The notes beneath the pieces are model-generated. The model did no database searches, was not told where the DNA came from, and was given only the letters and a program-made list of their open reading frames with translations. The position numbers and the translations under genes were made by a program. Below, piece by piece: positions 678 through 16,305 of a DNA stretch of 64,000 nt. Position 1 is the first letter of the stretch; every line of letters starts with the position of its first letter. Source of the DNA: an uncultured Dehalococcoidia bacterium. GTDB taxonomy: Bacteria; Chloroflexota; Dehalococcoidia; Dehalococcoidales; UBA1222. The stretch is from NCBI GenBank assembly GCA_903844845.1, contig CAIMVG010000021.1:6785-70784 (forward strand), in the 5' to 3' direction.

Positions 678-1289
678 TTAATTCAACACTGTAAAAGTCT
701 GAAGCAGGTGGTCGTAGTCTCCCTGTGTAACTGCTTTTAGAGAAACATCAGAAGTCATGTCCAGTTCTATTATCAGGCTTTTATACATAAAGCAAGTGAT
801 GCGGTAGTAAGCCGGGCCCGTTGGGCTTCCTGAACCGGAACCTGAATCGATCGCTGTAAAAGAGGCACCTGCGGCGATTTGGCCGTCGACGGTGGTGGCC
901 GTTTTTTTATCGAGAGTGAAATCAGTGAGGACTCCCTGGGCATTGGTTAACAGGGTGTCAACAGTTGCTGTAGCAGTTAAAAGGTCAGCGCTCGCGGGCC
1001 AAACATATACATATATCTCGCTGATCGCATCTCCGATCCTGGCTCCGAGGCCGATTGTAGTATAGGCAGAATCAGAAGTATTGCTTAAATCTATGCGGAT
1101 TAAAGAATAGGACGAAGGGTATTCGAAACTGAACCCTTGAACGCCCTCTTTGATGCTGAATGTTTTAGTGCCACTCGAACCGCAGCCCGCCGCGAATACG
1201 AGCATCGTCAAAACGATGACTTTCCCGGCGAGTTTGAGGTATTCACTGGTTTTTTTCAAAGCATTATCCAATTGTCGAGCCGTAAACAT
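678..1289 (-). CDS. Putative lipoprotein, unknown function
   Basis: 203-aa ORF with an N-terminal hydrophobic segment ending in the lipobox-like LVFAAGCGSS. It is the last gene of the oxidase-strand cluster. A PsbP/DcrB-like fold is only a guess. Confidence 0.55.
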   Translation of the reverse strand: MFTARQLDNALKKTSEYLKLAGKVIVLTMLVFAAGCGSSGTKTFSIKEGVQGFSFEYPSSYSLIRIDLSNTSDSAYTTIGLGARIGDAISEIYVYVWPASADLLTATATVDTLLTNAQGVLTDFTLDKKTATTVDGQIAAGASFTAIDSGSGSGSPTGPAYYRITCFMYKSLIIELDMTSDVSLKAVTQGDYDHLLQTFTVLN

Positions 1290-1315: not shown

Positions 1316-1897
1316 CTATTTAGGCCAGATGCCCGTGTGAGCATAAGCTATGGCGATATGTGCGACGAATGAAAATATCCATGGCCACCACCAGAAGCTG
1401 TGATGAGAGTATACCCATTTTATCCACTTGTTTTCCAAAGGGCTTTTACCGGTGAAGAAATTCCAGAACGGGTTAAGCAGCCGGCATGAAAAGATTACCA
1501 GACTGAAGAAAATCAGCGAACTGAAAGCAAATCCGAGTATCCACCAGTGTACCGGTGCATCAGGGTCCCCGGATTTTGGAAACCCGGTATGAAAAAATGC
1601 CGTCATGATGTGGAGGATTGCGATGGTAATGAATGCCCACCACGTAAAGAAATGCCCGTCATAGAAGGCTTTGTAAACGCGTGATTTCAGAGGGTCCTTG
1701 TGCAGTCTGCGAAAGATAACAGGTATAACGCGGCAGGACGCGAATACTGCGAACGCGGATAGAAACGTCAGTATTCCCAGTATGATGGCCAGTCTCTGGT
1801 TATAGAGGCTGCCGGGCGAGGTTGAGCTGATGTCACTCAACCTCGCCTGACTCTTTGAAAATAGCGAGATTAGGCTATCTGAAGAATACGACTGCAA
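1316..1897 (-). CDS. His/Trp-rich ~4-TM membrane protein, unknown function (possibly heme-b binding, DUF4405-like)
   Basis: 193-aa ORF with four hydrophobic segments carrying conserved-looking His residues (HIMTAFFHTG, VHWWILG, AHIAIAYAHTG). It overlaps the upstream ORF by 23 nt in the oxidase operon. Confidence 0.5.
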   Translation of the reverse strand: MQSYSSDSLISLFSKSQARLSDISSTSPGSLYNQRLAIILGILTFLSAFAVFASCRVIPVIFRRLHKDPLKSRVYKAFYDGHFFTWWAFITIAILHIMTAFFHTGFPKSGDPDAPVHWWILGFAFSSLIFFSLVIFSCRLLNPFWNFFTGKSPLENKWIKWVYSHHSFWWWPWIFSFVAHIAIAYAHTGIWPK

Positions 1898-2138
1898 ATT
1901 GCCTCCAGTGCATTATCAGGTAGATGATTGCCCAGATTATTATTGTAGAGATGACGACCAGTGCGATCGCTGGGGTGCCTCCATGCCCTTCCTGCACGAC
2001 GCCCCCAAAAGTCTCTGCATGAGCCTGGGTGTCCTCCACAGAATAGCCTTGCCCCGCGCGGACTGCCAGGTAGGTTAATAGGCTCACGATCCCCATTATC
2101 AGAAGGACGAACCAGGCGAGGTGGACGTTGCTACTCAT
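1875..2138 (-). CDS. Small 2-TM membrane protein in the oxidase operon, unknown function
   Basis: 87-aa ORF with two hydrophobic helices. It shows a 4-nt ATGA-type overlap with the ccoS-like ORF. Confidence 0.5.
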   Translation of the reverse strand: MSSNVHLAWFVLLIMGIVSLLTYLAVRAGQGYSVEDTQAHAETFGGVVQEGHGGTPAIALVVISTIIIWAIIYLIMHWRQFAVVFFR

Positions 2139-2329
2139 TTCTTTTTATCACCCTCCTTCAACCTGTCAGTAGGGTTTTTCGTTTCGTTGGCGTCGTCAGG
2201 GAACATGCTGTATTTGGCCTCTTCTATATTTTTGAATTGCCCGCTGCGTATGCCCCAGATTAAAAATCCCAGGAAAATTGCGAAGATGAGCGCTGTCTCG
2301 ATTGTTTGGGCTATTGTCGCTTCATCCAT
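2135..2329 (-). CDS. ccoS: cbb3-type cytochrome oxidase maturation protein CcoS/FixS-like
   Basis: 64 aa with a single TM followed by WGIRSGQFKNIEE...FPDD. This matches the CcoS hallmark W..RSGQFDD...DD recalled from the family. It starts 4 nt after the oxidase stop. Confidence 0.65.
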   Translation of the reverse strand: MDEATIAQTIETALIFAIFLGFLIWGIRSGQFKNIEEAKYSMFPDDANETKNPTDRLKEGDKKK

Positions 2330-2333
2330 ATAT

Positions 2334-5135
2334 TTATCCTTTAAAGTTTTGTGCGAAAGAGTCTGTATATAACGGTGCCCACTTGGTATAGTCGGCTGGA
2401 GCCGCGAAGGTCTGCACGTAGAAAACCAGCTGCGCCATGTCGGTGGAGGTAAAAGCGTATTTCCACGGCGGCATGTTGGTCGTTTCCACGCCTTCGCTTA
2501 TCTTCCATAACCAGCGCCCATAGTTTTGGAAATCATGGTTGCTCTCTTCGAAGTTGGCCGGCTGCGGGTTGATGTAGCCGCCCGCGGCAGCGATTGAGGC
2601 CGGTCCGTCGCCGTGGCCCAGGTCCCCATGGCACTGGGCGCAATACAGGTTGAAGAAAGATTGGCCCTTCAGGTAATCGGCTTGCGTGCCGGCGATCTGA
2701 GGGGTTGGATGCTGGGTGGCGTCGAAGTTGTCGCCTTCAGCGTCCGACACGTCTCCGGATATTGTTCGGACGGCGCCGGCTTTGAAGCTTTCCTCGTAGC
2801 TGGAGATGAGCCATATGTCCGTGTCGCTTGTAGAGATTCCCCAGGCCGGCATGCCGGTTCCGGGCACCCCTTCATGGATGCGCCAGTAATGGAAAGCGTC
2901 CTGGTTTACAGGATAGTTGATAACCCGTTCGTGGATGTTTGCCGGGCGGGTGACCACCTGGCGTGCGTAGGCTCCCTGCCCGTTGCCTGAACAACCATGG
3001 CATGAAGAACATTTCTCAAGGAAGAGTTGTTTCCCCATATCGAATATATCGCCCCATGCCTTACCGGCCGCCGGATCGCCCGAATAGACCTGCTGGACCG
3101 GGTCGTAACCGGGTATGACCTCGGCCAGGACTGCAGTATTTGGATTTGCCTCGTCCGCGAATTGTGACGGTACCAATGGCTGGAAGGCCTGCGTATCCAG
3201 GTTTTCGGTGCCTAACCCCTGGATATATGATACAAGGTCCGAAAGCTGGTTTGCGGAAAGGAAATCGAATTCAGGCATTATTGAACTCGGGGAAACTGAT
3301 CGCGGGTTGGCGTCATGCTGGATATGCCATTCAGTGGGTCTCTTGCCCCCGATCTGCCCGAGTGATGGTCCGGTACGTTCGGTTCCCAGGAAGTTAGGGA
3401 CTGAATAGTAAAAGTCCCCGCTTTCCGATACCGTTCCCATCGCCCAGTCCTGGGTACGTATGAACTGGTTATGGCAGTACTCGCATCCGAGGGTCCTGTA
3501 CAGTGCTTCCCCGCGAGTTTGCTGGGCTGTGAGCGGTTGAGCCAGGGCGCTGGGGATATTGTCGGTGTACATATAAGGCATCGCCACCACCATGAAAGTC
3601 ATTATCAGGAAAAGCGAAAATCCGCCGGCGGAGACCGCAGGAAAACCCAGTGTTTGCTGGCTGCGGCGCTGAAATGCAGATTCGGCGAGCGAGGTTTTCG
3701 CCATTATCGGTTCTATGGCAGGTTCTGTTTCATCGTAAGGCTCGCGTGATTTCCATAGTGTCATGAAAAAGTTGTACGCAAGGACGAAAGCCGAGAGCAC
3801 TACAAGACCGCCGCCGATAGCGCGGATGACGAGCCAGACTTTGAGGGTGGGAAGTGTTTCCACCACATTGATATGTGCCCACCAGTTGGCGTTTTGTTGC
3901 AGTCCGGCTCCCGACATCCCGATGAAGAATATCGCGAAACCGATCATAGCCAGCCAGAAATTGAAGCTCATTATTCGCTTACTGTAGATTTTAAAGCCGG
4001 TTATCCGGGGGAGGACGTAATATATGGCAGCAACGCTCAAAAACCCGAATGCACCCAGTATCGTAAGATGCGAATGGCCTACCGGCCATTGGGAGAAATG
4101 GAGGAAAGCGTTGGTGGACGGCATGCCCTGTAAGGATCCCTGGAACGAGCCCAAGGTATATGCCAGTACTGCAAAAACCACGAAGGCCAGCGGCACGTTC
4201 TGGAAGACTTTGTTCCATGAACCACGGAGGGTCAGCAGGATGTTTGTTATGAAAGCGAACACGGGTACCACCATGAGGCCGGTCATTATGACTGCGCTGG
4301 TTTTCAGCCAGTCTGGTATGGGAGCCTGGAGAAGGTGATGCCCTCCTACGCCCGTGTACCAAAGGGCCAATGTGAAAAACGTTACCAGAGAGAGCAGGTG
4401 AGAATAGATCGGGCGTTTGAGGAGGCGTGCGATAAAAAAATACATTGAGCCGACACCCATTGTGGTGAACCAGAAAGCAAGAACATTGTGGCCGTAATAC
4501 CAGTTGAAGATTGAGTCGACGGTGCCGTTTAGTGCGCCCATCGGGGGGCGCCACATCACGTTTCCGATGAAATACACGACGGGGAAGGCCAGGAAAGTCA
4601 CTCCGTAGTACCAGAGGGAAGAGAACATCTTCTTCTCGGCGCGGTGGATGATATTATTGAAAACGATGTATGTTATGGTCAGCAAAGCGATCTCTACGAA
4701 GACATCGTTTATCCATGGGAGTTCGGCGTATTCCCTGCCCTGGCTGGAAAACCAAGGTCCAAAACCGAAAAGAATGCCGATGATGCCGATCAGCAGGTTA
4801 ACGTTCCAGAGCACAGCAGCCCATTTGGCCAGGTTCGCTTTGCGAAGAGGGGCCTTACAAAGCCGCGGGATCACATAAAACATAGCTCCTATTAGGCCGG
4901 AAGAAACGAACCCAAAGAGCACTCCGTTCACGTGGGCCGGACGTACCCGGCCGAACGAGTCCCAGGCGGCGTTGCCAAGAAAGCCCGGTTCGAAGAACTT
5001 TATTGCAAGTATCAATCCGAAAAGAGTCAAAAATGGGAACCATAAAGCTGCGGATATGAGCCACCATTTTACGGCCCGGTCTCCTTCTTTAAGGGTTTCT
5101 CTTTCTTTTTGGTATTCGCTCACGGTCTCAACCAT
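2334..5135 (-). CDS. ccoN: Fused cbb3-type cytochrome c oxidase: CcoN (catalytic) + CcoO (monoheme c) + CcoP-like (diheme c) in one 933-aa polypeptide
   Basis: The N-terminal ~470 aa carries CcoN motifs (FGRVRPAHVNG, NWYYGHNVLAFWFT, GGHHLLQAPIPDW, GHSHLTILGAFG). A TM anchor follows, then three CXXCH sites (CEYCH, CSSCH, CAQCH). SD GGAGG lies upstream. Confidence 0.85.
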   Translation of the reverse strand: MVETVSEYQKERETLKEGDRAVKWWLISAALWFPFLTLFGLILAIKFFEPGFLGNAAWDSFGRVRPAHVNGVLFGFVSSGLIGAMFYVIPRLCKAPLRKANLAKWAAVLWNVNLLIGIIGILFGFGPWFSSQGREYAELPWINDVFVEIALLTITYIVFNNIIHRAEKKMFSSLWYYGVTFLAFPVVYFIGNVMWRPPMGALNGTVDSIFNWYYGHNVLAFWFTTMGVGSMYFFIARLLKRPIYSHLLSLVTFFTLALWYTGVGGHHLLQAPIPDWLKTSAVIMTGLMVVPVFAFITNILLTLRGSWNKVFQNVPLAFVVFAVLAYTLGSFQGSLQGMPSTNAFLHFSQWPVGHSHLTILGAFGFLSVAAIYYVLPRITGFKIYSKRIMSFNFWLAMIGFAIFFIGMSGAGLQQNANWWAHINVVETLPTLKVWLVIRAIGGGLVVLSAFVLAYNFFMTLWKSREPYDETEPAIEPIMAKTSLAESAFQRRSQQTLGFPAVSAGGFSLFLIMTFMVVAMPYMYTDNIPSALAQPLTAQQTRGEALYRTLGCEYCHNQFIRTQDWAMGTVSESGDFYYSVPNFLGTERTGPSLGQIGGKRPTEWHIQHDANPRSVSPSSIMPEFDFLSANQLSDLVSYIQGLGTENLDTQAFQPLVPSQFADEANPNTAVLAEVIPGYDPVQQVYSGDPAAGKAWGDIFDMGKQLFLEKCSSCHGCSGNGQGAYARQVVTRPANIHERVINYPVNQDAFHYWRIHEGVPGTGMPAWGISTSDTDIWLISSYEESFKAGAVRTISGDVSDAEGDNFDATQHPTPQIAGTQADYLKGQSFFNLYCAQCHGDLGHGDGPASIAAAGGYINPQPANFEESNHDFQNYGRWLWKISEGVETTNMPPWKYAFTSTDMAQLVFYVQTFAAPADYTKWAPLYTDSFAQNFKG

Positions 5136-5177
5136 GTTTGCCTCCTGCCGTTCGCTTCAAATCTTCGGATATCCCTG

Positions 5178-5969
5178 TCACTTGATTGTAACGGTGATTT
5201 TTGAGACGACCCCGGGTGTCAAAGGGGTATCGTCGTCGTTGACAAGTTCGATACTGAAGGTATGGGTCCCTGTCGTCACGTTATGCCAGGTATAAGTTGT
5301 ATCCGATGTGCTGAAGGAGGTGTCTGTTATTGCAGGGTTTCCCGGGTCCGCAGAGGCTTCCTCATCCATGAAATATATGATGTGCCCCTCGCCCGGCGCA
5401 GGTGTTTGCCTGGTGGGTGCGACGAGTAATAAATTATTGGATTCTACCGATATGATGACGTCTCCGGGAGGTAACTGCCCGCCATCGCGTGGAAGGAGTA
5501 TAACGGCCCTGGGATTGCCCAGTTCAGGGACCACCAGGACTTGCTTCGTGGCTATTATTGGAGGGTTCAACGGCGTGTTGTCGTTATTCACCAGTTCAAC
5601 GGATATTGAGTGGGCACCGCTGCCGACGTTGGGGAATGTATAAGTCGTGGATGCTGTTGTAGTCCAGGTTCCCGGCGCGGCCCCTGCCGGAACTCCCTGG
5701 GTGGTTGAGGCATCTGCGTCGAGATAATAATGCAGGTGTCCTTCGCCCGGTACCGCAGCCTGGCCCTGCTTGTCGGCAATGGTAAAGTTTGTGATGGAAA
5801 CCGCGATAGCCAGGTCTCCTATCGAATATACATTGGTGGGAGGGGCCAGGAAAGTGATTTTAGGGGCGAGTTCCGCTGCTGTGGCACAGGATAAAAAGAA
5901 AGAAGCTTGTAGTAAAAATAACGTGAGCACCATAAACGACATCTGAGGGTTAATGCGTTTGTGTCTCAT
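5178..5969 (-). CDS. Secreted protein with two tandem ~110-aa domains, each with a PGEGH(L/I) motif (DUF4399-like), unknown function
   Basis: Signal peptide present (LTLFLLQASFFLSCATAA). Internal duplication is visible: PGEGHLHYYLDADAS ... SISVELVNNDNTPL versus PGEGHIIYFMDEEAS ... FSIELVNDDDTPL. It lies 42 nt upstream of the oxidase gene. Confidence 0.6.
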   Translation of the reverse strand: MRHKRINPQMSFMVLTLFLLQASFFLSCATAAELAPKITFLAPPTNVYSIGDLAIAVSITNFTIADKQGQAAVPGEGHLHYYLDADASTTQGVPAGAAPGTWTTTASTTYTFPNVGSGAHSISVELVNNDNTPLNPPIIATKQVLVVPELGNPRAVILLPRDGGQLPPGDVIISVESNNLLLVAPTRQTPAPGEGHIIYFMDEEASADPGNPAITDTSFSTSDTTYTWHNVTTGTHTFSIELVNDDDTPLTPGVVSKITVTIK

Positions 5970-6887: not shown

Positions 6888-8873
6888 TTATTGTGTTTGT
6901 TCTGCCATACGCCGCTTTGACCGTTTTAGAACATTTAAAAATGCCAGGACGATGACCACGGCAATCAGCACCGCAAAACCTGTCCCGATAATGACCCAGT
7001 TATATGAAAAATTGGCTGTCAGGGTTACTGGTGAATCCAAAACGATGGATGTAGTTTTATCGTTACTTGAACCTGCCCCGGTCCATCCGGTAAACGAGTA
7101 TATGAAAGATTTAGGTTTGGCCGCGAGTTCAACGGTTGTTCCTTGCGGTGCGAAAATAGTTTTGGATGGCGCGTCCCCTGTCTCACCGTTTGTGGCTCCT
7201 GCCGAATAAGAAACGGACCCCTTGCCCGAAGTCGTGATCGTAAGCCCTGGATAGAAAGTTGCGGTTTCCATTAACGGGGCATTCACGATCACGGAAGCGC
7301 TGCTGTCAGTGCCTGAATAGCCACCCTGCCCTGAACCGGTCCATCCCTCGAACTTCCATCCCTGGTCGGCTGCCGCAGCAGACTCGAAGGCCGTGCCGGA
7401 ATTGAACCACCCGCTTCCAATCGATATCGAGCCTCCCGAAGCGGGACTGAGCGCAGTCGTGACATAAAACTGATGGCTATAGGCAGCAACGACACTGCCG
7501 GTCGCCGAAACCGTACCCGTCGCCGGGTCTGCGGTCCATCTCTCGGAAGAAGACGATCCGGTCAAAGGGTTGGAAAAGCTGTACGGGGCCGCGTCTGCCC
7601 AGGTTTGTGAACCCATCGCCGGAGTGATCTGGCTTCCGAATTGCTGGCAGGTCAAAGCCGGGGGAGAATAGCCCGTTCCACCTCCGATGACACTGAAATC
7701 AAATGTCACCTGGTACTGGTGATAAAACACTATATTTATCGTCAAAGGCGAGATGGCCGTGCCCGCGGTAGCCTGCAAGGCCTGCCATCTTTCTGCTGCG
7801 GACGAGGACACGGGGTTGGTGATGCTCCAGGTCGAACCCGAGTCGATCGTGAATGTCTGGTTGGATGTGCTTAAAGTCGCGGTTTTCTGGGTTCCTCCGG
7901 AGATGTAGGTCAGCACCGGAGCAGAAACAGCGCCGGTTCCCCCTGAGATGGAATAGGCGAACGTCAGCGCGGCAGTCGATGCCGCGGACGGGATTCCTGA
8001 CAGGCCGCCGGTGACGAACTGGGTGGCGTTGATGGACTCGGTCGCCCCGTTGGAAGTCAGAGTTTGGAACTTTGTGGGATTTGTAAAAGTGAGCGGAGAA
8101 GGTGTGGAGGCGGAAAACACCTGTCTCACGCTGCCATTTTGGGAGATACCGATTTCATCGATCCACAACCAGGCCGAAGGAATCGCGGGCCCGTTGTCGT
8201 AATAGGTTACATTTTGCTCATCCCCGTAATAAGGTGCGGTATGGTACCATTCCGTCATCAACCCGGTCCAGAACCCTGCTTTGCTTGCCACTGAAGACGG
8301 GTTCCCGAGAAACGTTGTTGCCCCGGCCGCGGTGTAGGTTTGCTGGGCATGGGCCCCGGTGTTCTGGTCGCTGCCGTTCATGATTACATTGCCGTTGGAG
8401 AAACTCAGGCTCAGAGTGATCAAGTCGCCATTATTCACGGGTGAAAACGGTGCAATCCCCCCGCCGCCGTCAGTCGGGAAAATTGAATTACCCGAGGGGT
8501 TGAAGACTTCGTAACTTAACTGAAATCCCGACCCCTGGCTCCAATTGTATGACAGCCCGACCTGGTACCAGTAACCTGTGTTCCCCAGACCATTTACCAG
8601 GTAAGCCGGGCCATAGCCGTCTGTGCCAGATTGTGCGACAGCTGTGATGTTATAAGATAGCGAGGGCATGTCCTGTGTAAAGGTACAGGCTATTTGCTCG
8701 TCGTAGATATAAGAAGCCTGCGGCCTCGTGAGGTTATAGCCGGCGAGCCTGGGCAGGATTGAAAGTGAGGCGGGTTGGCTTGCTTGTAACGGGATAGTCA
8801 GGCCGATACTGGCCGCTAAAAGAACTACCGCTGTGAGCGATATACATGCACGGAATATCCTGTTATTTCTCAC
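6888..8873 (-). CDS. Large secreted surface protein with a C-terminal TM anchor and InlB-B-repeat-like domains
   Basis: 661 aa with an N-terminal signal peptide. The N-terminal domain is Y/W/G-rich (GYWYQVGLSYNW, MTEWYH). Two C-terminal F-x-GWTG repeats are present (KFEGWTGSG..., FTGWTGAGS...). A terminal hydrophobic helix is followed by KRSKRR. Confidence 0.65.
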   Translation of the reverse strand: MRNNRIFRACISLTAVVLLAASIGLTIPLQASQPASLSILPRLAGYNLTRPQASYIYDEQIACTFTQDMPSLSYNITAVAQSGTDGYGPAYLVNGLGNTGYWYQVGLSYNWSQGSGFQLSYEVFNPSGNSIFPTDGGGGIAPFSPVNNGDLITLSLSFSNGNVIMNGSDQNTGAHAQQTYTAAGATTFLGNPSSVASKAGFWTGLMTEWYHTAPYYGDEQNVTYYDNGPAIPSAWLWIDEIGISQNGSVRQVFSASTPSPLTFTNPTKFQTLTSNGATESINATQFVTGGLSGIPSAASTAALTFAYSISGGTGAVSAPVLTYISGGTQKTATLSTSNQTFTIDSGSTWSITNPVSSSAAERWQALQATAGTAISPLTINIVFYHQYQVTFDFSVIGGGTGYSPPALTCQQFGSQITPAMGSQTWADAAPYSFSNPLTGSSSSERWTADPATGTVSATGSVVAAYSHQFYVTTALSPASGGSISIGSGWFNSGTAFESAAAADQGWKFEGWTGSGQGGYSGTDSSASVIVNAPLMETATFYPGLTITTSGKGSVSYSAGATNGETGDAPSKTIFAPQGTTVELAAKPKSFIYSFTGWTGAGSSNDKTTSIVLDSPVTLTANFSYNWVIIGTGFAVLIAVVIVLAFLNVLKRSKRRMAEQTQ

Positions 8874-11587: not shown

Positions 11588-12304
11588 ATAGAAGTCATTC
11601 CGGCCATCGATATCCGCGGCGGCAAATGCGTCCGCCTTTACCAGGGCGATTTCAATCTTGAAACGGTGTTTTCGAACGATCCCCTCGAGATGGCACTCCA
11701 GTGGCAGTCGCTGGGAGCCACAAGGCTTCACATCGTCGACCTGGATGGGGCCGCTACCGGTGAACCGGGGAATCTCGACATAATATCCGCCATCGCCTCG
11801 ACGATTTTCATCCCCATCGAAGTCGGCGGGGGCATCCGCAGTGTCGCCACCATGGAAAAACTGCTCAAACTGGGCGCTGACCGCGTTGTGCTTGGAACTT
11901 CTGCTGTAAATAATCCGGAAATGATAACCGAAGCCTGCCGCAAATTTTGCCAGGCCATAGTCGTCTCCATCGATGCGAGGGGCGGTTTTGTAGCCACTCA
12001 CGGCTGGAAGAAAGCCACCGAAATATCGGTGGTGAACTTCGCCCGGTCGCTCGTGGACCTGGGCGTCCGTCGCTTCGTTTACACCGATATCAGCCGCGAC
12101 GGCACCCTTACCGAGCCGAATTACACCGGGCTCTTCGAACTGATGGATACCACCAAGTTCCCCATTGTCGCTTCAGGCGGCATCTCATCGGTCATGCATC
12201 TCAAAGTACTGAAGAAACTGGGCGCCGAAGGCGCGATCATCGGCCGGGCGCTCTATACGGGGGCCATAAACCTCGCCCAGGCCCTGGCTGCTGTCGAAAG
12301 TTAG
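11588..12304 (+). CDS. hisA: HisA, 1-(5-phosphoribosyl)-5-[(5-phosphoribosylamino)methylideneamino]imidazole-4-carboxamide isomerase
   Basis: Motifs LHIVDLDGA, GGGIRS and ASGGISS are present. The conserved N-terminus (E)VIPAIDIRGGKCVRLYQGDF lies upstream of the track's GTG (11666). No ATG/GTG/TTG is in frame back to the stop at 11546-11548. I therefore propose ATA at 11588, 6 nt after GAGGAG. Confidence 0.85.
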   Translation: MEVIPAIDIRGGKCVRLYQGDFNLETVFSNDPLEMALQWQSLGATRLHIVDLDGAATGEPGNLDIISAIASTIFIPIEVGGGIRSVATMEKLLKLGADRVVLGTSAVNNPEMITEACRKFCQAIVVSIDARGGFVATHGWKKATEISVVNFARSLVDLGVRRFVYTDISRDGTLTEPNYTGLFELMDTTKFPIVASGGISSVMHLKVLKKLGAEGAIIGRALYTGAINLAQALAAVES

Positions 12305-12324
12305 TTTTATCCTGGAGGGGTTAA

Positions 12325-12654
12325 ATGCTGAATATCAAATATGACGACAAGGGGCTTGTGCCCGCCATCATCCAGGATGCTGAATTCAACGATGTCCTGA
12401 TGCTGGGTTACATGAACGCCGAAGCCCTGAAATTGACCATGGAAAGCGGCCATGCCTGGTTCTGGAGCCGCAGCCGCCAGGAATTGTGGCACAAAGGCGC
12501 CACGTCAGGGAATTATCTTAAAGTCGTCGAAGTGCGGTACGACTGCGATATCGACGCGATCTTGGTGAAAGCCAATCCGATGGGCCCCACCTGCCACACC
12601 GGCGAGCGTAGCTGTTTTTTCAGAAAGCTTATTGCCGAGGACCTGCAGGATTAA
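12325..12654 (+). CDS. hisI: Phosphoribosyl-AMP cyclohydrolase HisI
   Basis: [23 protein letters not shown] and DCDIDAILV...[12 protein letters not shown] are typical HisI motifs. Confidence 0.9.
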
Positions 12655-13573
12655 TTGCTGGCTCCGGCTCAATAACGCCGTCCGCTAATAAAACTTCCTT
12701 CAGGGCGGCGATGGCCACTTCCAGCATCTTATCGTCCGGCTGACGCGTGGTCAGGCTTTGCAGCCACAGGCCGGGCGCCACCAGCCATTGGATAAGCCTG
12801 TTTTCCATGTGCCTCGCCCCGTATTGAGTCACTTCGTAGGCTATGGCCGCGATGACCGGCAGCAGCAGGATGCGCGACACTATCAGGAGCCACAGGGACT
12901 GTTTTCCGACAAGGCTGAACACGAAGATAGCTATTATCAGCACTGCCAGCAGGAAAGCCGTTCCGCAGCGCGCATGGGCGGTAGAATATTCCTGTACCGC
13001 AGCCGGAGTCAGTTCCACACCGGCCTCGTAAGCATGGATAGTTTTGTGCTCCGCTCCGTGATAAGAGAAAACGCGCCGGATGTCCGGCATGAAGCCCACG
13101 CCGACGAGGTAGAGTAGAAAAATACACAGGCGAAGAACCCCTTCGACTATATTGAACGGCAGGCTGCCTTGCATCCCGGGCATTATCCATTTCGTCAGGA
13201 ACAGCGGCAGTAAAGAAAACAGCCCGACCGCAAATGCAAGGGAAACCATCAGGACGAGAAAAAGAGTTGCCCCGCCCAGGGTTGTGTTTTCTTTCCTTGT
13301 ATCCCCGGCTTTGGGTTTCTCGATATCTTCAAGCGCGACATTTGTGGAGAAGATAAGTGATTCCGTCCCGAGCACCATGGCTTCTATCATGGCGATAACG
13401 CCCCGGGAGAATGGCAGTTTGCGCCAGCGCCCGGTGTAGATGGGGTGCAATGGATGGACGTCCTTCGCAAGTGTCCCATCCGGTTTGCGCACGACGGTGG
13501 CTATGGTTTTCGCCCCCCGCATCATGACCCCTTCCATCACCGCCTGGCCGCCGTATCTGAATTTGTCTGCCAT
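12629..13573 (-). CDS. DUF1385-family membrane protein (YqhQ-like)
   Basis: [16 protein letters not shown] and YHGAEHK motifs are present. I prefer the ATG at 13573, preceded by AGGAG, over the track start at 13591. Confidence 0.8.
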
Positions 13574-13581
13574 GACCACTC

Positions 13582-13620
13582 CTAAAAACAAAAAGGAGCG
13601 GACAAACGCCCGCTCCTTTT
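13582..13620 (-). terminator. Rho-independent terminator after rpmE
   Basis: AAAAGGAGCGG (13591-13601) pairs with CCGCTCCTTTT (13610-13620). A T-run follows on the minus strand. Confidence 0.7.
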
Positions 13621-13641
13621 GAGTTTACTGCAAGACCCGAC

Positions 13642-13878
13642 CTATTTAGCTTCCTTGGTTTCCGCAGTTGCTTTGGCTTCTTTGCCGTAGCGCTGTTTGA
13701 ACCTTTCAACCCGGCCGGCGGTGTCTATCATGCGCTTGCTTCCGGTGTAAAAAGGATGGCAGGCGCTGCAAAGCTCGACTTTCAGTGTCTTGCGGGTCGA
13801 ACCGGTAGTGAACACGTTACCGCAAGAGCAGGTAACCTGAGCGTCTTCGTAAAATTTGGGGTGAATTTTTTCTTTCAT
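13642..13878 (-). CDS. rpmE: 50S ribosomal protein L31 (Zn-ribbon type)
   Basis: [10 protein letters not shown]...CSCG...[10 protein letters not shown]. Confidence 0.95.
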
Positions 13879-13881
13879 ATA

Positions 13882-14139
13882 CTAGCCTTCAGCGTAAACG
13901 CTGACCTTTCTGCGATTCTTGCCGGCGGGTTCGAATTTTACCACGCCGTCTACCGTGGCGTAGAGCGTGTGATCACGCCCGATACCTACGCTGTTGCCTG
14001 CTTTGACATGGGTGCCCATCTGGCGAACCAGGATGGTGCCGGAGGTGACAGTTTCGCCCCCGAAACGCTTGATTCCAAGCATCTTGGGCTTACTGTCGCG
14101 GCCGTTGCGGGATGAGCCCGCACCTTTTTTGTGAGCCAT
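13882..14139 (-). CDS. rpmA: 50S ribosomal protein L27
   Basis: [16 protein letters not shown]...LGIKRFGG. Confidence 0.95.
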
Positions 14140-14140
14140 T

Positions 14141-14530
14141 TTACGTTACCTCTTTCTTGGTGGTGCGGCGGGTCTTGGCGGCGGGCTTTTCAGCCGCGGG
14201 CGCCTCAGAAGCGATGCCGGGGCCGGTGATGCTGTTTATCGTCAGTTCGGTGAAGGATTGGCGATGCCCGATCCTGCGGCTGTAGCGCACCTTGGCTTTA
14301 TACTTCATACCGAAGACTTTTTTGTCGAGGCCGTCGCCCTTGCTGGTGCAAGAGACCTTGGCGCCTTCGATGACGGGCTTGCCCAGGATGAGGTTTTCCC
14401 CATCGTGGATGGCAAGAACACGGTCGATGTCGATAGTGCCGCCCTCGGCAACTTCGAGAGACTCAACCTTCAGGCTTTCGCCTGGGCTGACCTTATATTG
14501 TTTACCACCGGTTTCGATTATCGCGTAAAT
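14141..14530 (-). CDS. rplU: 50S ribosomal protein L21 with a Lys/Ala-rich C-terminal tail
   Basis: [13 protein letters not shown] is the canonical L21 N-terminus. The start is ambiguous. ATT at 14530 lies 7 nt after GGAGGTG and would give [12 protein letters not shown] at 14551 is the track start and sits at the predicted TSS. Confidence 0.9.
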
Positions 14531-15765: not shown

Positions 15766-16305
15766 TTACTTCTCCTCACCGGCTGTTTTTTCGGGCACAG
15801 TCTCAGGTGGCGGGAGGAATTTGAATACTCCCTGCACCCCCGATTTCAGGTCCGAGAGCATCTGTTTTACTGTTTTTCCGTTTACCGGATGCTTCAGGCC
15901 CGGTGCGATCTCTTCAAGGGGAACCAGGACGAAAGCCCGTTCCTGGATGTGGGGATGGGGGATGGTCAGGGACGGAGTGTCGATGATTTCCTTACCGTAA
16001 AACAGGATATCTATGTCCATTGGACGTGGGCTGTAAGGCGTTGAAGGCACGCGCCCGAGTTTGGACTCGATGCCTTTCAGCAGCGATAAAAGAACTTGCG
16101 GATCCAGTGTGGTGCGGGCAAGGGCCACCATATTCAGAAAACGCGGTTGATCCGGGTTTATTTCCGGAGCGGTGTCGTACACCGAGGATACTTTTTCAAC
16201 ATTCAGTCTTTCGGATAGAAAACCGATGGCTCTGTCGAGGTTCTGTTTGCGGTCACCGACATTTGAACCCAGGCCAAGATAAACACAAATTTGTTCCGTA
16301 TTCAT
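15766..16305 (-). CDS. folK: 2-amino-4-hydroxy-6-hydroxymethyldihydropteridine diphosphokinase FolK
   Basis: VYLGLGSNVGDR...VSSVYDTAP...RPMDIDILFY is the HPPK pattern. It overlaps folP by 4 nt. Confidence 0.85.
   Translation of the reverse strand: MNTEQICVYLGLGSNVGDRKQNLDRAIGFLSERLNVEKVSSVYDTAPEINPDQPRFLNMVALARTTLDPQVLLSLLKGIESKLGRVPSTPYSPRPMDIDILFYGKEIIDTPSLTIPHPHIQERAFVLVPLEEIAPGLKHPVNGKTVKQMLSDLKSGVQGVFKFLPPPETVPEKTAGEEK

Follow-up and report, generated by a model that had tools for sequence, protein, structure and literature searches.

The stretch of DNA analyzed here, 64,000 nucleotides from an uncultured Dehalococcoidia bacterium (contig CAIMVG010000021.1 of assembly GCA_903844845.1, positions 6,785 to 70,784; referred to throughout as the window, by which we mean the whole stretch), carries near one end a gene in which CcoN, the catalytic subunit of cbb3-type haem-copper oxidases (HCOs), the monohaem cytochrome c subunit CcoO, and two further c-type haem domains are joined in a single polypeptide. 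Two small genes follow it directly on the same strand, and several less widely conserved genes flank the three. A preliminary description of the locus, made from the sequence and its open reading frames (ORFs), had recognized the fusion, had called it CcoP-like at its C-terminal end and unusual as a whole, and had suggested a high-affinity O2 reductase. As we set out below, the encoded enzyme is probably a C-family (cbb3-type) haem-copper O2 reductase whose subunits have been repartitioned among its genes.

A fusion gene with four modules

The gene is the lone ORF of its interval in the ORF listing of the window and runs without interruption, as the preliminary description had reported and as re-translation of its coordinates bears out (Table 1). 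Pfam recognizes, from the N to the C terminus, COX1 (residues 20-442, E 9e-79), FixO (residues 512-631, E 3e-25, 89.5 bits against a cut-off of 29.6), Cytochrome_CBB3 (residues 700-780), and Cytochrom_C (residues 823-909); judged by such E-values over 933 codons, a chance origin of the ORF is impossible. All of the motifs quoted earlier were recovered, namely YYGHN (H216), GGHHLL (H266/H267), GHSH (H354/H356), CEYCH (551-555), GPSLGQIGGKR, CSSCH (709-713), and CAQCH (832-836), and both the Pfam domains and the alignment of ligands agree with a genuine one-chain protein comprising CcoN, CcoO, and two extra c-haem domains.

A long ORF of this kind could in principle arise as an artefact, if a frameshift, the loss of a stop codon, or chimeric assembly had run separate ccoN, ccoO, and ccoP-like genes together, a concern that the preliminary description itself had raised. 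We judged this question from independent assemblies, orthologues, and linker conservation. A product identical over all 933 aa is recorded on nine contigs, which come from at least three independent assemblies, among them one metagenome assembly at ENA and two Logan assemblies of different runs. A survey that scanned one genome per GTDB species yielded 28 loci, and in 23 of these the orthologue is collinear and unbroken at 913-1011 aa, including a complete Dehalogenimonas chromosome and isolate genomes. The segments joining the modules are themselves conserved in alignments of 35 and 45 homologues (52-79% identity): in the linker between CcoN and CcoO (the N-O linker), F509 is invariant and S492, Q493, and P499 are nearly invariant, and that between CcoO and the first cytochrome c domain has three invariant residues, P656, Y677, and G686. 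Beyond these loci, at least 120 clusters at 90% identity share the four Pfam domains, and the 120 best that were listed all measure 886-970 aa. What speaks for an artefact is that a two-gene form does occur naturally in a Bathyarchaeia locus, that a stand-alone protein of CcoO followed by two cytochrome c domains (O-c-c) exists at 469 aa (P0126), and that the orthologue is interrupted in one long-read metagenome-assembled genome (MAG). Against the identical product in separate assemblies, the collinear orthologues of matching length, and the conserved linkers, we regard the probability of an artefact as negligible and reject it; the worry over assembly is resolved by this evidence. In the interrupted case (L026 7947-10747, a Chloroflexota MAG), the first ORF covers only 162 aa, yet tblastn spans the whole protein, and the interruption probably reflects assembly frameshift errors rather than a pseudogene.

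Table 1. Positions of the fusion gene, its parts, and neighboring genes in the window; residue numbers are those of the fusion protein.
Feature	Position	Strand	Details
Whole fusion ORF, CcoN-CcoO-cytochrome c-cytochrome c	2334..5135	(-)	933 aa, ATG start, stop codon included
Shine-Dalgarno AGGAGG	5141..5146	(-)	5 nt 5' of the ATG at 5135; read from sequence
CcoN module, residues 1-470, 12 transmembrane helices	3726..5135	(-)	phmmer to 3mk7_A/9g6b_A, E about 1e-62; AlphaFold2 helices
Haem b ligands	H68, H356		P. stutzeri H60, H347; invariant in 45 sequences
Haem b3 ligand	H354		P. stutzeri H345; invariant in 45 sequences
CuB ligands	H216, H266, H267		P. stutzeri H207, H257, H258; invariant in 45 sequences
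Cross-link Tyr (putative bond)	Y260		P. stutzeri Y251; invariant; 6 residues before the HH pair, C-family position
Cytoplasmic N-O linker (...F(Q)RRSQ... motif) and transmembrane helix 13, the CcoO anchor, about residues 498-523	3561..3725	(-)	AlphaFold2 helix
CcoO monohaem c domain	3171..3560	(-)	C551-x-x-C554-H555 (nt 3471-3485), axial M620 (nt 3276-3278); Pfam FixO
Cytochrome c domain A	2778..3047	(-)	C709-x-x-C712-H713 (nt 2997-3011), axial M762; Pfam Cytochrome_CBB3
Cytochrome c domain B, C-terminal, presumed electron entry	2334..2690	(-)	C832-x-x-C835-H836 (nt 2628-2642), axial M888; Pfam Cytochrom_C
64-aa single-transmembrane CcoS/FixS-like protein, presumed cofactor-insertion factor	2135..2329	(-)	4 nt after the fusion gene
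87-aa two-transmembrane hairpin, candidate detached CcoP anchor (FixP_N-like)	1875..2138	(-)	4-nt overlap of its start with the ccoS-like stop
193-aa four-transmembrane protein, internal two-fold repeat, probably cytochrome b561-type, tentative part	1316..1897	(-)	Only in Dehalococcoidia loci
203-aa predicted lipoprotein, end of co-oriented gene string	678-1289	(-)	Kept in two Dehalococcoidia loci (L004, L006) only; no family match
263-aa lipoprotein, two DUF4399 domains, tentative accessory	5178..5969	(-)	42-nt gap upstream of the fusion; Pfam E 4.5e-7
hgcA, 330 aa	17491-18483	(-)	NVWCAAGK cap-helix motif at residue 89, C-terminal transmembrane domain
hgcB, 92 aa	17212-17490	(-)	Two CxxCxxCxxxC motifs, C-terminal ECC

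Catalytic and haem c modules and the likely substrate

Solved CcoN chains are only about 28% identical to the fusion and are recovered by phmmer at E of about 1e-62, against 7e-8 for NorB and 7e-8 or worse for nitric-oxide reductase (NOR) and A-family chains. An AlphaFold2 model of the fusion (built with database proteins only) has a mean pLDDT of 76 and shows 12 helices followed by a 13th, and its best fold match in the PDB according to Foldseek is the CcoN chain 3mk7_A, with a TM-score of 0.89 on the target. The six histidine ligands and the cross-link tyrosine, whose roles are those known from the P. stutzeri structure, are all present, and every ligand is invariant in 45 homologues, so that the loss of CuB or haem ligands contemplated in the preliminary description was not seen. 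Most of the residues of the K(C) proton channel (in P. stutzeri T215, Y223, S240, H243, N289, and Y317) are likewise retained: five of the six correspond to T224, Y232, S249, N298, and Y326 of the fusion, four of them invariant and S249 nearly so.

Following the 13th helix, the CcoO domain aligns with CcoO of Rhodobacter capsulatus and P. stutzeri (6xkw_o/3mk7_B) at E 1e-19, over a range that spans the CxxCH, the GxxRTGPxL motif, the (S/V)MP methionine, and the C-terminal helix; its score against TIGR00781 falls below the cut-off (80 vs 201 bits). The haem-binding and axial residues of this domain and of both cytochrome c domains (C551/C554/H555/M620, C709/C712/H713/M762, and C832/C835/H836/M888) are invariant in the two alignments. 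In the resulting topology, the CcoN module would end on the cytoplasmic side, helix 13 would span the membrane, and the three c-haem domains would lie outside. How far the C-terminal part deserves the name CcoP-like, given to it in the preliminary description, depends on the feature considered. It does consist of two class-I cytochrome c domains, each with a CxxCH and a methionine ligand. At the same time, TIGR00782 (ccoP) reaches only 35 bits against a cut-off of 180, over one domain; the FixP_N anchor of CcoP is absent from the fusion according to Pfam, and from residue 524 to residue 933 the AlphaFold2 model contains no transmembrane segment. In a search with a dihaem-region profile, the best PDB match is the Kuenenia dihaem protein 6h5l_B, over the full length at E 5e-20, whereas the match to CcoP covers about 45 residues around one haem motif (E 8e-9). 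Entry 6H5L is cited in a preprint as a Kuenenia stuttgartiensis HAO structure.

The rival to an O2 reductase that these comparisons bring up is an enzyme that is primarily a NOR or an NO/O2 detoxifier, with a cytochrome c-dependent NOR (cNOR)-like use of the C-family scaffold in anaerobes that meet NO rather than O2. The cNORs and the C family are closest relatives among HCOs, and the window protein resembles NorB both in sequence (4xyd_A, E 7e-8, a marginal similarity) and in fold (TM-score 0.82); cNOR (NorBC; 3O0R, 4XYD) has a related 12-transmembrane fold, with TM-scores of about 0.8, and its anchored monohaem c subunit is analogous to CcoO. Low NO-reductase activity is known from cbb3 enzymes, the hosts are anaerobic, and a glutamine in place of P. 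stutzeri Glu323 alters the proximal side of haem b3. In Methanolobus vulcani, moreover, genes for a NorQ/CbbQ-type AAA+ ATPase (276 aa) and a 1140-aa VWA-domain protein lie upstream of the oxidase gene and divergent from it (L025 1835-6172, reverse strand). In the structure of P. aeruginosa cNOR, FeB has a glutamate ligand four residues after the first metal histidine, and a cross-link tyrosine is missing. The family, by contrast, has an invariant tyrosine at the C-family cross-link position (Y260; the covalent bond itself is putative), and at the glutamate position, four residues after H216, it has Ala in the window protein and Gly in the consensus. CcoN is matched about 55 orders of magnitude more strongly than NorB, the CcoS-like assembly gene accompanies the fusion throughout, and the NorQ/VWA pair does not recur in the loci from other phyla and belongs to no cluster of four or more loci. 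On the strength of Y260, the missing FeB glutamate, and the CcoN versus NorB scores, we reject the NOR reading, which we consider very improbable.

Several other observations weigh against assigning the fusion to the cbb3 oxidases and to O2 reduction. The position of Glu323 in P. stutzeri, presumably the hydrogen-bond partner of the proximal histidine of haem b3, is an invariant glutamine in the family (Gln332; several other non-proteobacterial CcoN representatives also have Gln here), and the sixth K(C) residue, His243, is replaced by Thr252; in view of these two replacements, redox tuning and O2 affinity may differ from those of characterized enzymes. The protein reaches 267.7 bits against a cut-off of 583 for TIGR00780 (ccoN) and 401 against 1080 for PRK14485, scores so far under the curated NCBIfam cut-offs that by this measure it is a divergent subfamily of C-family oxidases. 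The window holds no other c-type cytochrome, Ccm or ResBC gene, or Cu-ATPase that we could find, and the hosts count as strict anaerobes. The last point extends a remark in the preliminary description, which had drawn attention to hallmarks of anaerobes on the same fragment: the association with anaerobes holds across the whole family. The best inference that family membership allows is nevertheless that the enzyme reduces O2 with high affinity and serves in microaerobic respiration or in detoxification, and most likely it is a proton-translocating cbb3 variant for respiration or scavenging at nanomolar O2.

The conserved cassette and its genomic neighborhood

Comparison of the window neighbors with the 28 loci by tblastn shows that the fusion gene, a 64-aa gene, and an 87-aa gene, abutting and on the same strand, occur in this order wherever a locus extends far enough to show it (25 loci, bacterial as well as archaeal). 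The preliminary description, accurate on the fusion itself, was incomplete on its surroundings and had overlooked the conserved CcoS-like and 87-aa genes as well as the DUF4399 and cytochrome b561-like neighbors. The 64-aa protein, encoded directly downstream of the fusion in each of the 25 loci, matches Pfam FixS at E 1e-6 (28.8 bits vs a cut-off of 23.1), falls below the cut-off of TIGR00847 (16.9 vs 28.35), and matches FixQ more weakly (E 0.002).

The 87-aa protein belongs to a family of 59 clusters, all labelled "hypothetical". We think it fairly probable that this protein is the detached membrane anchor of CcoP, a reading to which several independent and individually weak signals point. 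Pfam FixP_N matches it at the expected position, with an E-value of 0.015. When a profile of the family was compared with 177,635 PDB sequences, the top three were CcoP chains, aligned over residues 6-75 without gaps across the whole hairpin, at E-values (0.6-1.2) that are not significant by HMMER. Alignment with the CcoP anchor by hhalign gave a probability of 81-86% and scores of 30.9 and 32.5 at 16% identity, against 13 +/- 3 for 100 shuffles that preserved the transmembrane-loop-transmembrane pattern (maxima 22.8 and 24.6) and 20.2 for the unrelated CcoS-like family; the scores thus stand about 6 standard deviations above the shuffles and above an unrelated transmembrane family. Position 50 is acidic (Glu or Asp) in every one of 58 sequences and aligns with CcoP Glu49, at which the K(C) channel is proposed to begin, and this acidic residue together with the motif that follows it falls on the IEE-YDNPLP loop of CcoP.

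Alternatively, the 87-aa protein may be an unrelated, family-specific small subunit or assembly factor (CcoQ, CcoM, or CcoH-like), in which case the enzyme would lack an equivalent of the CcoP anchor. This is what one might conclude from the low hhalign identity and the want of a significant HMMER match, from Pfam FixP_N, to which no more than four of the 22 members give a match, at E >= 0.015 (15.4 bits vs a cut-off of 24.9), and from a profile search of a large protein database that returned only "hypothetical proteins" of 71-99 aa and no bridge to CcoP. A Foldseek search with the AlphaFold2 model (pLDDT 86) also gave no significant match (E about 5), and among its non-significant matches the CcoP chain 3mk7_C has the best query TM-score. 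Set against the gapless CcoP alignments, the hhalign margin, and the invariant acidic residue, an unrelated protein strikes us as the unlikelier explanation, one that we still take seriously. A Methanohalophilus match to the family (P0333) was discarded as unrelated in context.

If the 87-aa protein is indeed the CcoP anchor, all parts of a cbb3 oxidase would be present, partitioned differently from the canonical CcoNOQP enzymes that serve as our reference set (P. stutzeri 3MK7/5DJQ; P. aeruginosa 8SMR; R. capsulatus 6XKW). With these the window system shares the CcoN fold, the six histidine ligands, the helix-VII cross-link tyrosine and most K(C) residues, a CcoO with transmembrane anchor and a monohaem domain of CxxCH and methionine ligation, three c haems ahead of haem b, and a CcoS-type gene. 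It differs in carrying the N, O, and dihaem modules on one polypeptide, in the lack of CcoQ and of nearby ccoGHI genes, in a dihaem module that lacks FixP_N and stands nearer to 6h5l_B than to CcoP, with the candidate anchor in a separate gene, and in the two replacements and the NCBIfam equivalog scores described above.

In the enzyme that we envisage, one 933-aa chain would supply a 12-transmembrane CcoN with haem b, the haem b3-CuB center, and the His-Tyr cross-link, and helix 13 would bring the chain across the membrane to its outer side, where the CcoO monohaem domain is followed by a dihaem module that would take the role of the soluble part of CcoP. Electrons from an external donor would pass from the distal c haem (C832) by way of the middle c haem (C709) to the CcoO haem (C551), and from there through haem b to haem b3/CuB, where O2 would be reduced to water. 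Substrate protons, and probably pumped ones too, would enter from the cytoplasm through a K(C)-type channel. The CcoS-like factor would insert the cofactor, and the 87-aa hairpin, as the probable CcoP anchor, would complete the enzyme, whose likely role is the consumption of trace O2 for protection, energy conservation, or both.

The next gene downstream, which is read from the same strand and shares 23 nt with the 87-aa gene, encodes the 193-aa four-helix protein. Seven histidines, C55-R56, and C138 of this protein are invariant, and seven of eight orthologues match Pfam Ni_hydr_CYTB (prokaryotic cytochrome b561; best E 7e-7), although the window copy itself gives no match at E <= 1; it is probably a cytochrome b561-type dihaem b protein, and it could serve as a quinol-side entry for electrons. 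A stronger proposal would make the Dehalococcoidia system a quinol oxidase supercomplex in which the b561-like protein oxidises membrane quinol and feeds the fused c haems, with no bc1 complex or soluble cytochrome c involved. The gene overlap, the invariant histidines, the b561 matches, the occurrence of orthologues beside the cassette in seven Dehalococcoidia loci, and the failure to find other cytochrome c genes in 64 kb would all suit such a complex. The gene is found in the cassette of no other phylum, however, and in three loci it lies upstream on the opposite strand; with the failure of the window copy to match the Pfam model, these points leave us regarding the supercomplex as unlikely.

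On the other side of the fusion gene lies the DUF4399 lipoprotein gene, whose counterparts adjoin the cassette in 13 of 26 loci, in Chloroflexota and Bacillota, in one-domain and two-domain forms. The lipobox cysteine is invariant and the motifs G-x-G-H-x-x-Y-Y-x-D and N-x-D-x-T-P-L are conserved; we found neither a solved relative nor an NCBIfam family for this protein. A role as copper chaperone was considered and dropped, reduced to speculation because the histidines are not invariant. Other genes accompany the cassette elsewhere. ResB and CcsA, of System II cytochrome c maturation, are encoded next to it in six to seven loci, mainly Clostridia MAGs (directly beside it in L009 at 12058-14263, and also in L007, L010, L012, L013, and L019), and in four loci a conserved 150-aa membrane protein follows them. 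A non-copper P-type ATPase gene stands beside the cassette in Methanolobus and in one Dehalococcoidales locus.

The genes from 5969 down to about 678, co-oriented and tightly spaced and ending with that of a predicted lipoprotein, look like one operon. Upstream lies an AT-rich region of 380 bp, and a scan of promoters and terminators gave nothing above shuffled expectation. Another gene upstream of the operon (6888-8873, reverse strand) has no conserved counterpart in any related locus; its 661-aa product is secreted and anchored in the membrane and contains InlB B-repeat (Flg_new_2) domains of divergent sequence. Antisense "ORF families" that appeared when neighbors were clustered proved to be shadows of the conserved coding strand.

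As for the host, the window includes housekeeping genes such as recA, RNase Y, valS, secA, glyA, ftsK, and uvrB, and among them lies the hgcAB pair that the preliminary description had placed on the same fragment as the oxidase, with the diagnostic motifs given in Table 1; a pterin-binding (MeTr-like) gene lies just downstream of the pair (16302-17186, reverse strand). Since the window carries both these sets of genes, the oxidase gene is, to judge by its surroundings, chromosomal and part of the genome of a mercury-methylating Dehalococcoidia bacterium. As closest named relative, the scan gave a Dehalogenimonas MAG at 75% identity.

Related fusions, distribution, and significance

Parts of the fusion have precedents in curated families. 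Fusions of CcoN and CcoO, modelled as PRK14485 ("bifunctional cbb3 subunit I/II") and named by JGI "cytochrome c oxidase cbb3-type subunit I/II", show the same join of N to O through an extra transmembrane helix, and PRK14485 aligns over residues 11-631 of the window protein (E 1e-119). The latter has about 290 further residues, two more c haems, and other partner genes, and its score under the model's cut-off would place it outside that curated subfamily; the distant N-O fusions P0131 and P0134 (635-658 aa, one CxxCH, 34-35% identity) are the next relatives. Fusions of CcoO and cytochrome c, modelled as PRK14486 ("bifunctional subunit II/cytochrome c"), follow the same order of CcoO and then class-I cytochrome c and align with residues 510-785, at 135 bits against a cut-off of 447. 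Here the difference is that the O-c-c unit of the window protein is additionally joined to CcoN. The family has its own unfused O-c-c form in P0126, which is 58% identical and the second-best representative in a library clustered at 50% identity, and in a 464-aa gene of the Bathyarchaeia MAG locus L024 (7983-10774), where this gene and a 466-aa ccoN overlap by ATGA and the split falls at the N-O linker. The same 64-aa and 87-aa genes follow the split oxidase genes of L024.

In that same library the whole fusion family collapses into one representative, and other proteins with the N-O-c-c order fall elsewhere: P0128 (971 aa), P0158 (897 aa), and P0171 (999 aa) have the same modules and three CxxCH at similar positions and are only 27-32% identical, with P0128 and P0158 sister to the family in a neighbor-joining tree, and at least three other clusters at 50% identity represent independent N-O-c-c fusions. 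The statement in the preliminary description that an N-O-P fusion is unusual accordingly stands against the textbook ccoNOQP arrangement and fails against the size of the family, these further fusion clusters, and the partial fusions for which models exist. Among A-family HCOs, Thermus thermophilus caa3 (2YEV), with its polypeptide I+III and with cytochrome c fused to subunit II, might be seen as a precedent for merged subunits and an internalised donor; other subunits are fused there and CuA is present, so that the likeness is one of analogy only (2yev_A appears among the structure-chain matches as "polypeptide I+III").

At the loci surveyed, members of the family share 50-75% identity with the window protein; their annotation is mostly limited to "subunit I/II". 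Bacterial hosts include Dehalococcoidales/Dehalogenimonas, Syntrophales, Clostridia, Saccharofermentanales, and the isolate Desulfosporosinus sp. BG, together with Thermoleophilia, Coriobacteriia, and other Actinomycetota; archaeal hosts are the isolate Methanolobus vulcani PL 12/M, a Methanolobus MAG, an ANME-2 MAG, a Bathyarchaeia MAG, and Ca. Methanoperedens. In the neighbor-joining tree, which is indicative only, clades are phylum-coherent and the archaeal sequences form one clade nested among bacteria, a pattern compatible with a small number of transfers between phyla and between domains and with vertical descent thereafter. The cassette, common to anaerobes from several phyla of bacteria and to Methanosarcinales/ANME archaea, appears to have been exchanged among obligate anaerobes, methanogens included. 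For Methanolobus, a trace of its history is found in the complete chromosome of M. mangrovi (CP133594.1; L032 7001-9689), where a truncated 71-aa remnant of the 87-aa gene precedes a P-type ATPase gene whose product is 83% identical to that of M. vulcani, and where the fusion and ccoS-like genes are missing. By its sequence context, this remnant is a deletion scar of a cassette once located at this chromosomal site, and the synteny and the remnant in M. mangrovi argue that the M. vulcani cassette occupies a genuine Methanolobus site and is not a binning artefact. A 4.4-kb contig binned as Gudongella (Bacillota; L014) carries an oxidase that clusters tightly with Methanolobus in the tree and is probably mis-binned archaeal DNA.

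These observations might be drawn together, tentatively and with somewhat more doubt than conviction, as a horizontally mobile minimal cbb3 system, consisting of one chain, a detached CcoP anchor, CcoS, and sometimes ResBC, that has spread across Chloroflexota, Desulfobacterota, Bacillota, Actinomycetota, Methanolobus, ANME-2, and Methanoperedens and that would let strict anaerobes, cultured methanogens among them, reduce nanomolar O2 with proton translocation. In the open-access full-text literature we did not find the triple fusion, the cassette, or cbb3 oxidases in methanogens, Dehalogenimonas, or Desulfosporosinus described, which is absence of evidence only. The family is thus populous and annotated in databases, and apparently uncharacterized, and the N-O and O-c fusions already have NCBIfam models; what is new is the full repartition with a candidate detached CcoP anchor, the Gln332 active-site variant, and the spread of the cassette into Bacillota and methanogenic archaea.

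A natural single-chain cbb3 enzyme would be convenient for expression and structural work. The replacement of Glu323 by Gln gives it a naturally altered proximal side of haem b3, and it provides a case in which to examine what a CcoP anchor does when uncoupled from its haem domains. Since Dehalogenimonas formicexedens, Desulfosporosinus sp. BG, and Methanolobus vulcani are cultured, these questions are directly testable. If the enzyme is active, "obligate anaerobes" among the organohalide-respiring and mercury-methylating Dehalococcoidia, the syntrophs, the sulfate-reducing Desulfosporosinus, and the methylotrophic methanogens would carry a high-affinity and potentially energy-conserving O2 reductase, which would bear on how counts of "ccoN" and "ccoNO" markers in anoxic metagenomes are read and on how these organisms survive at oxic-anoxic interfaces.

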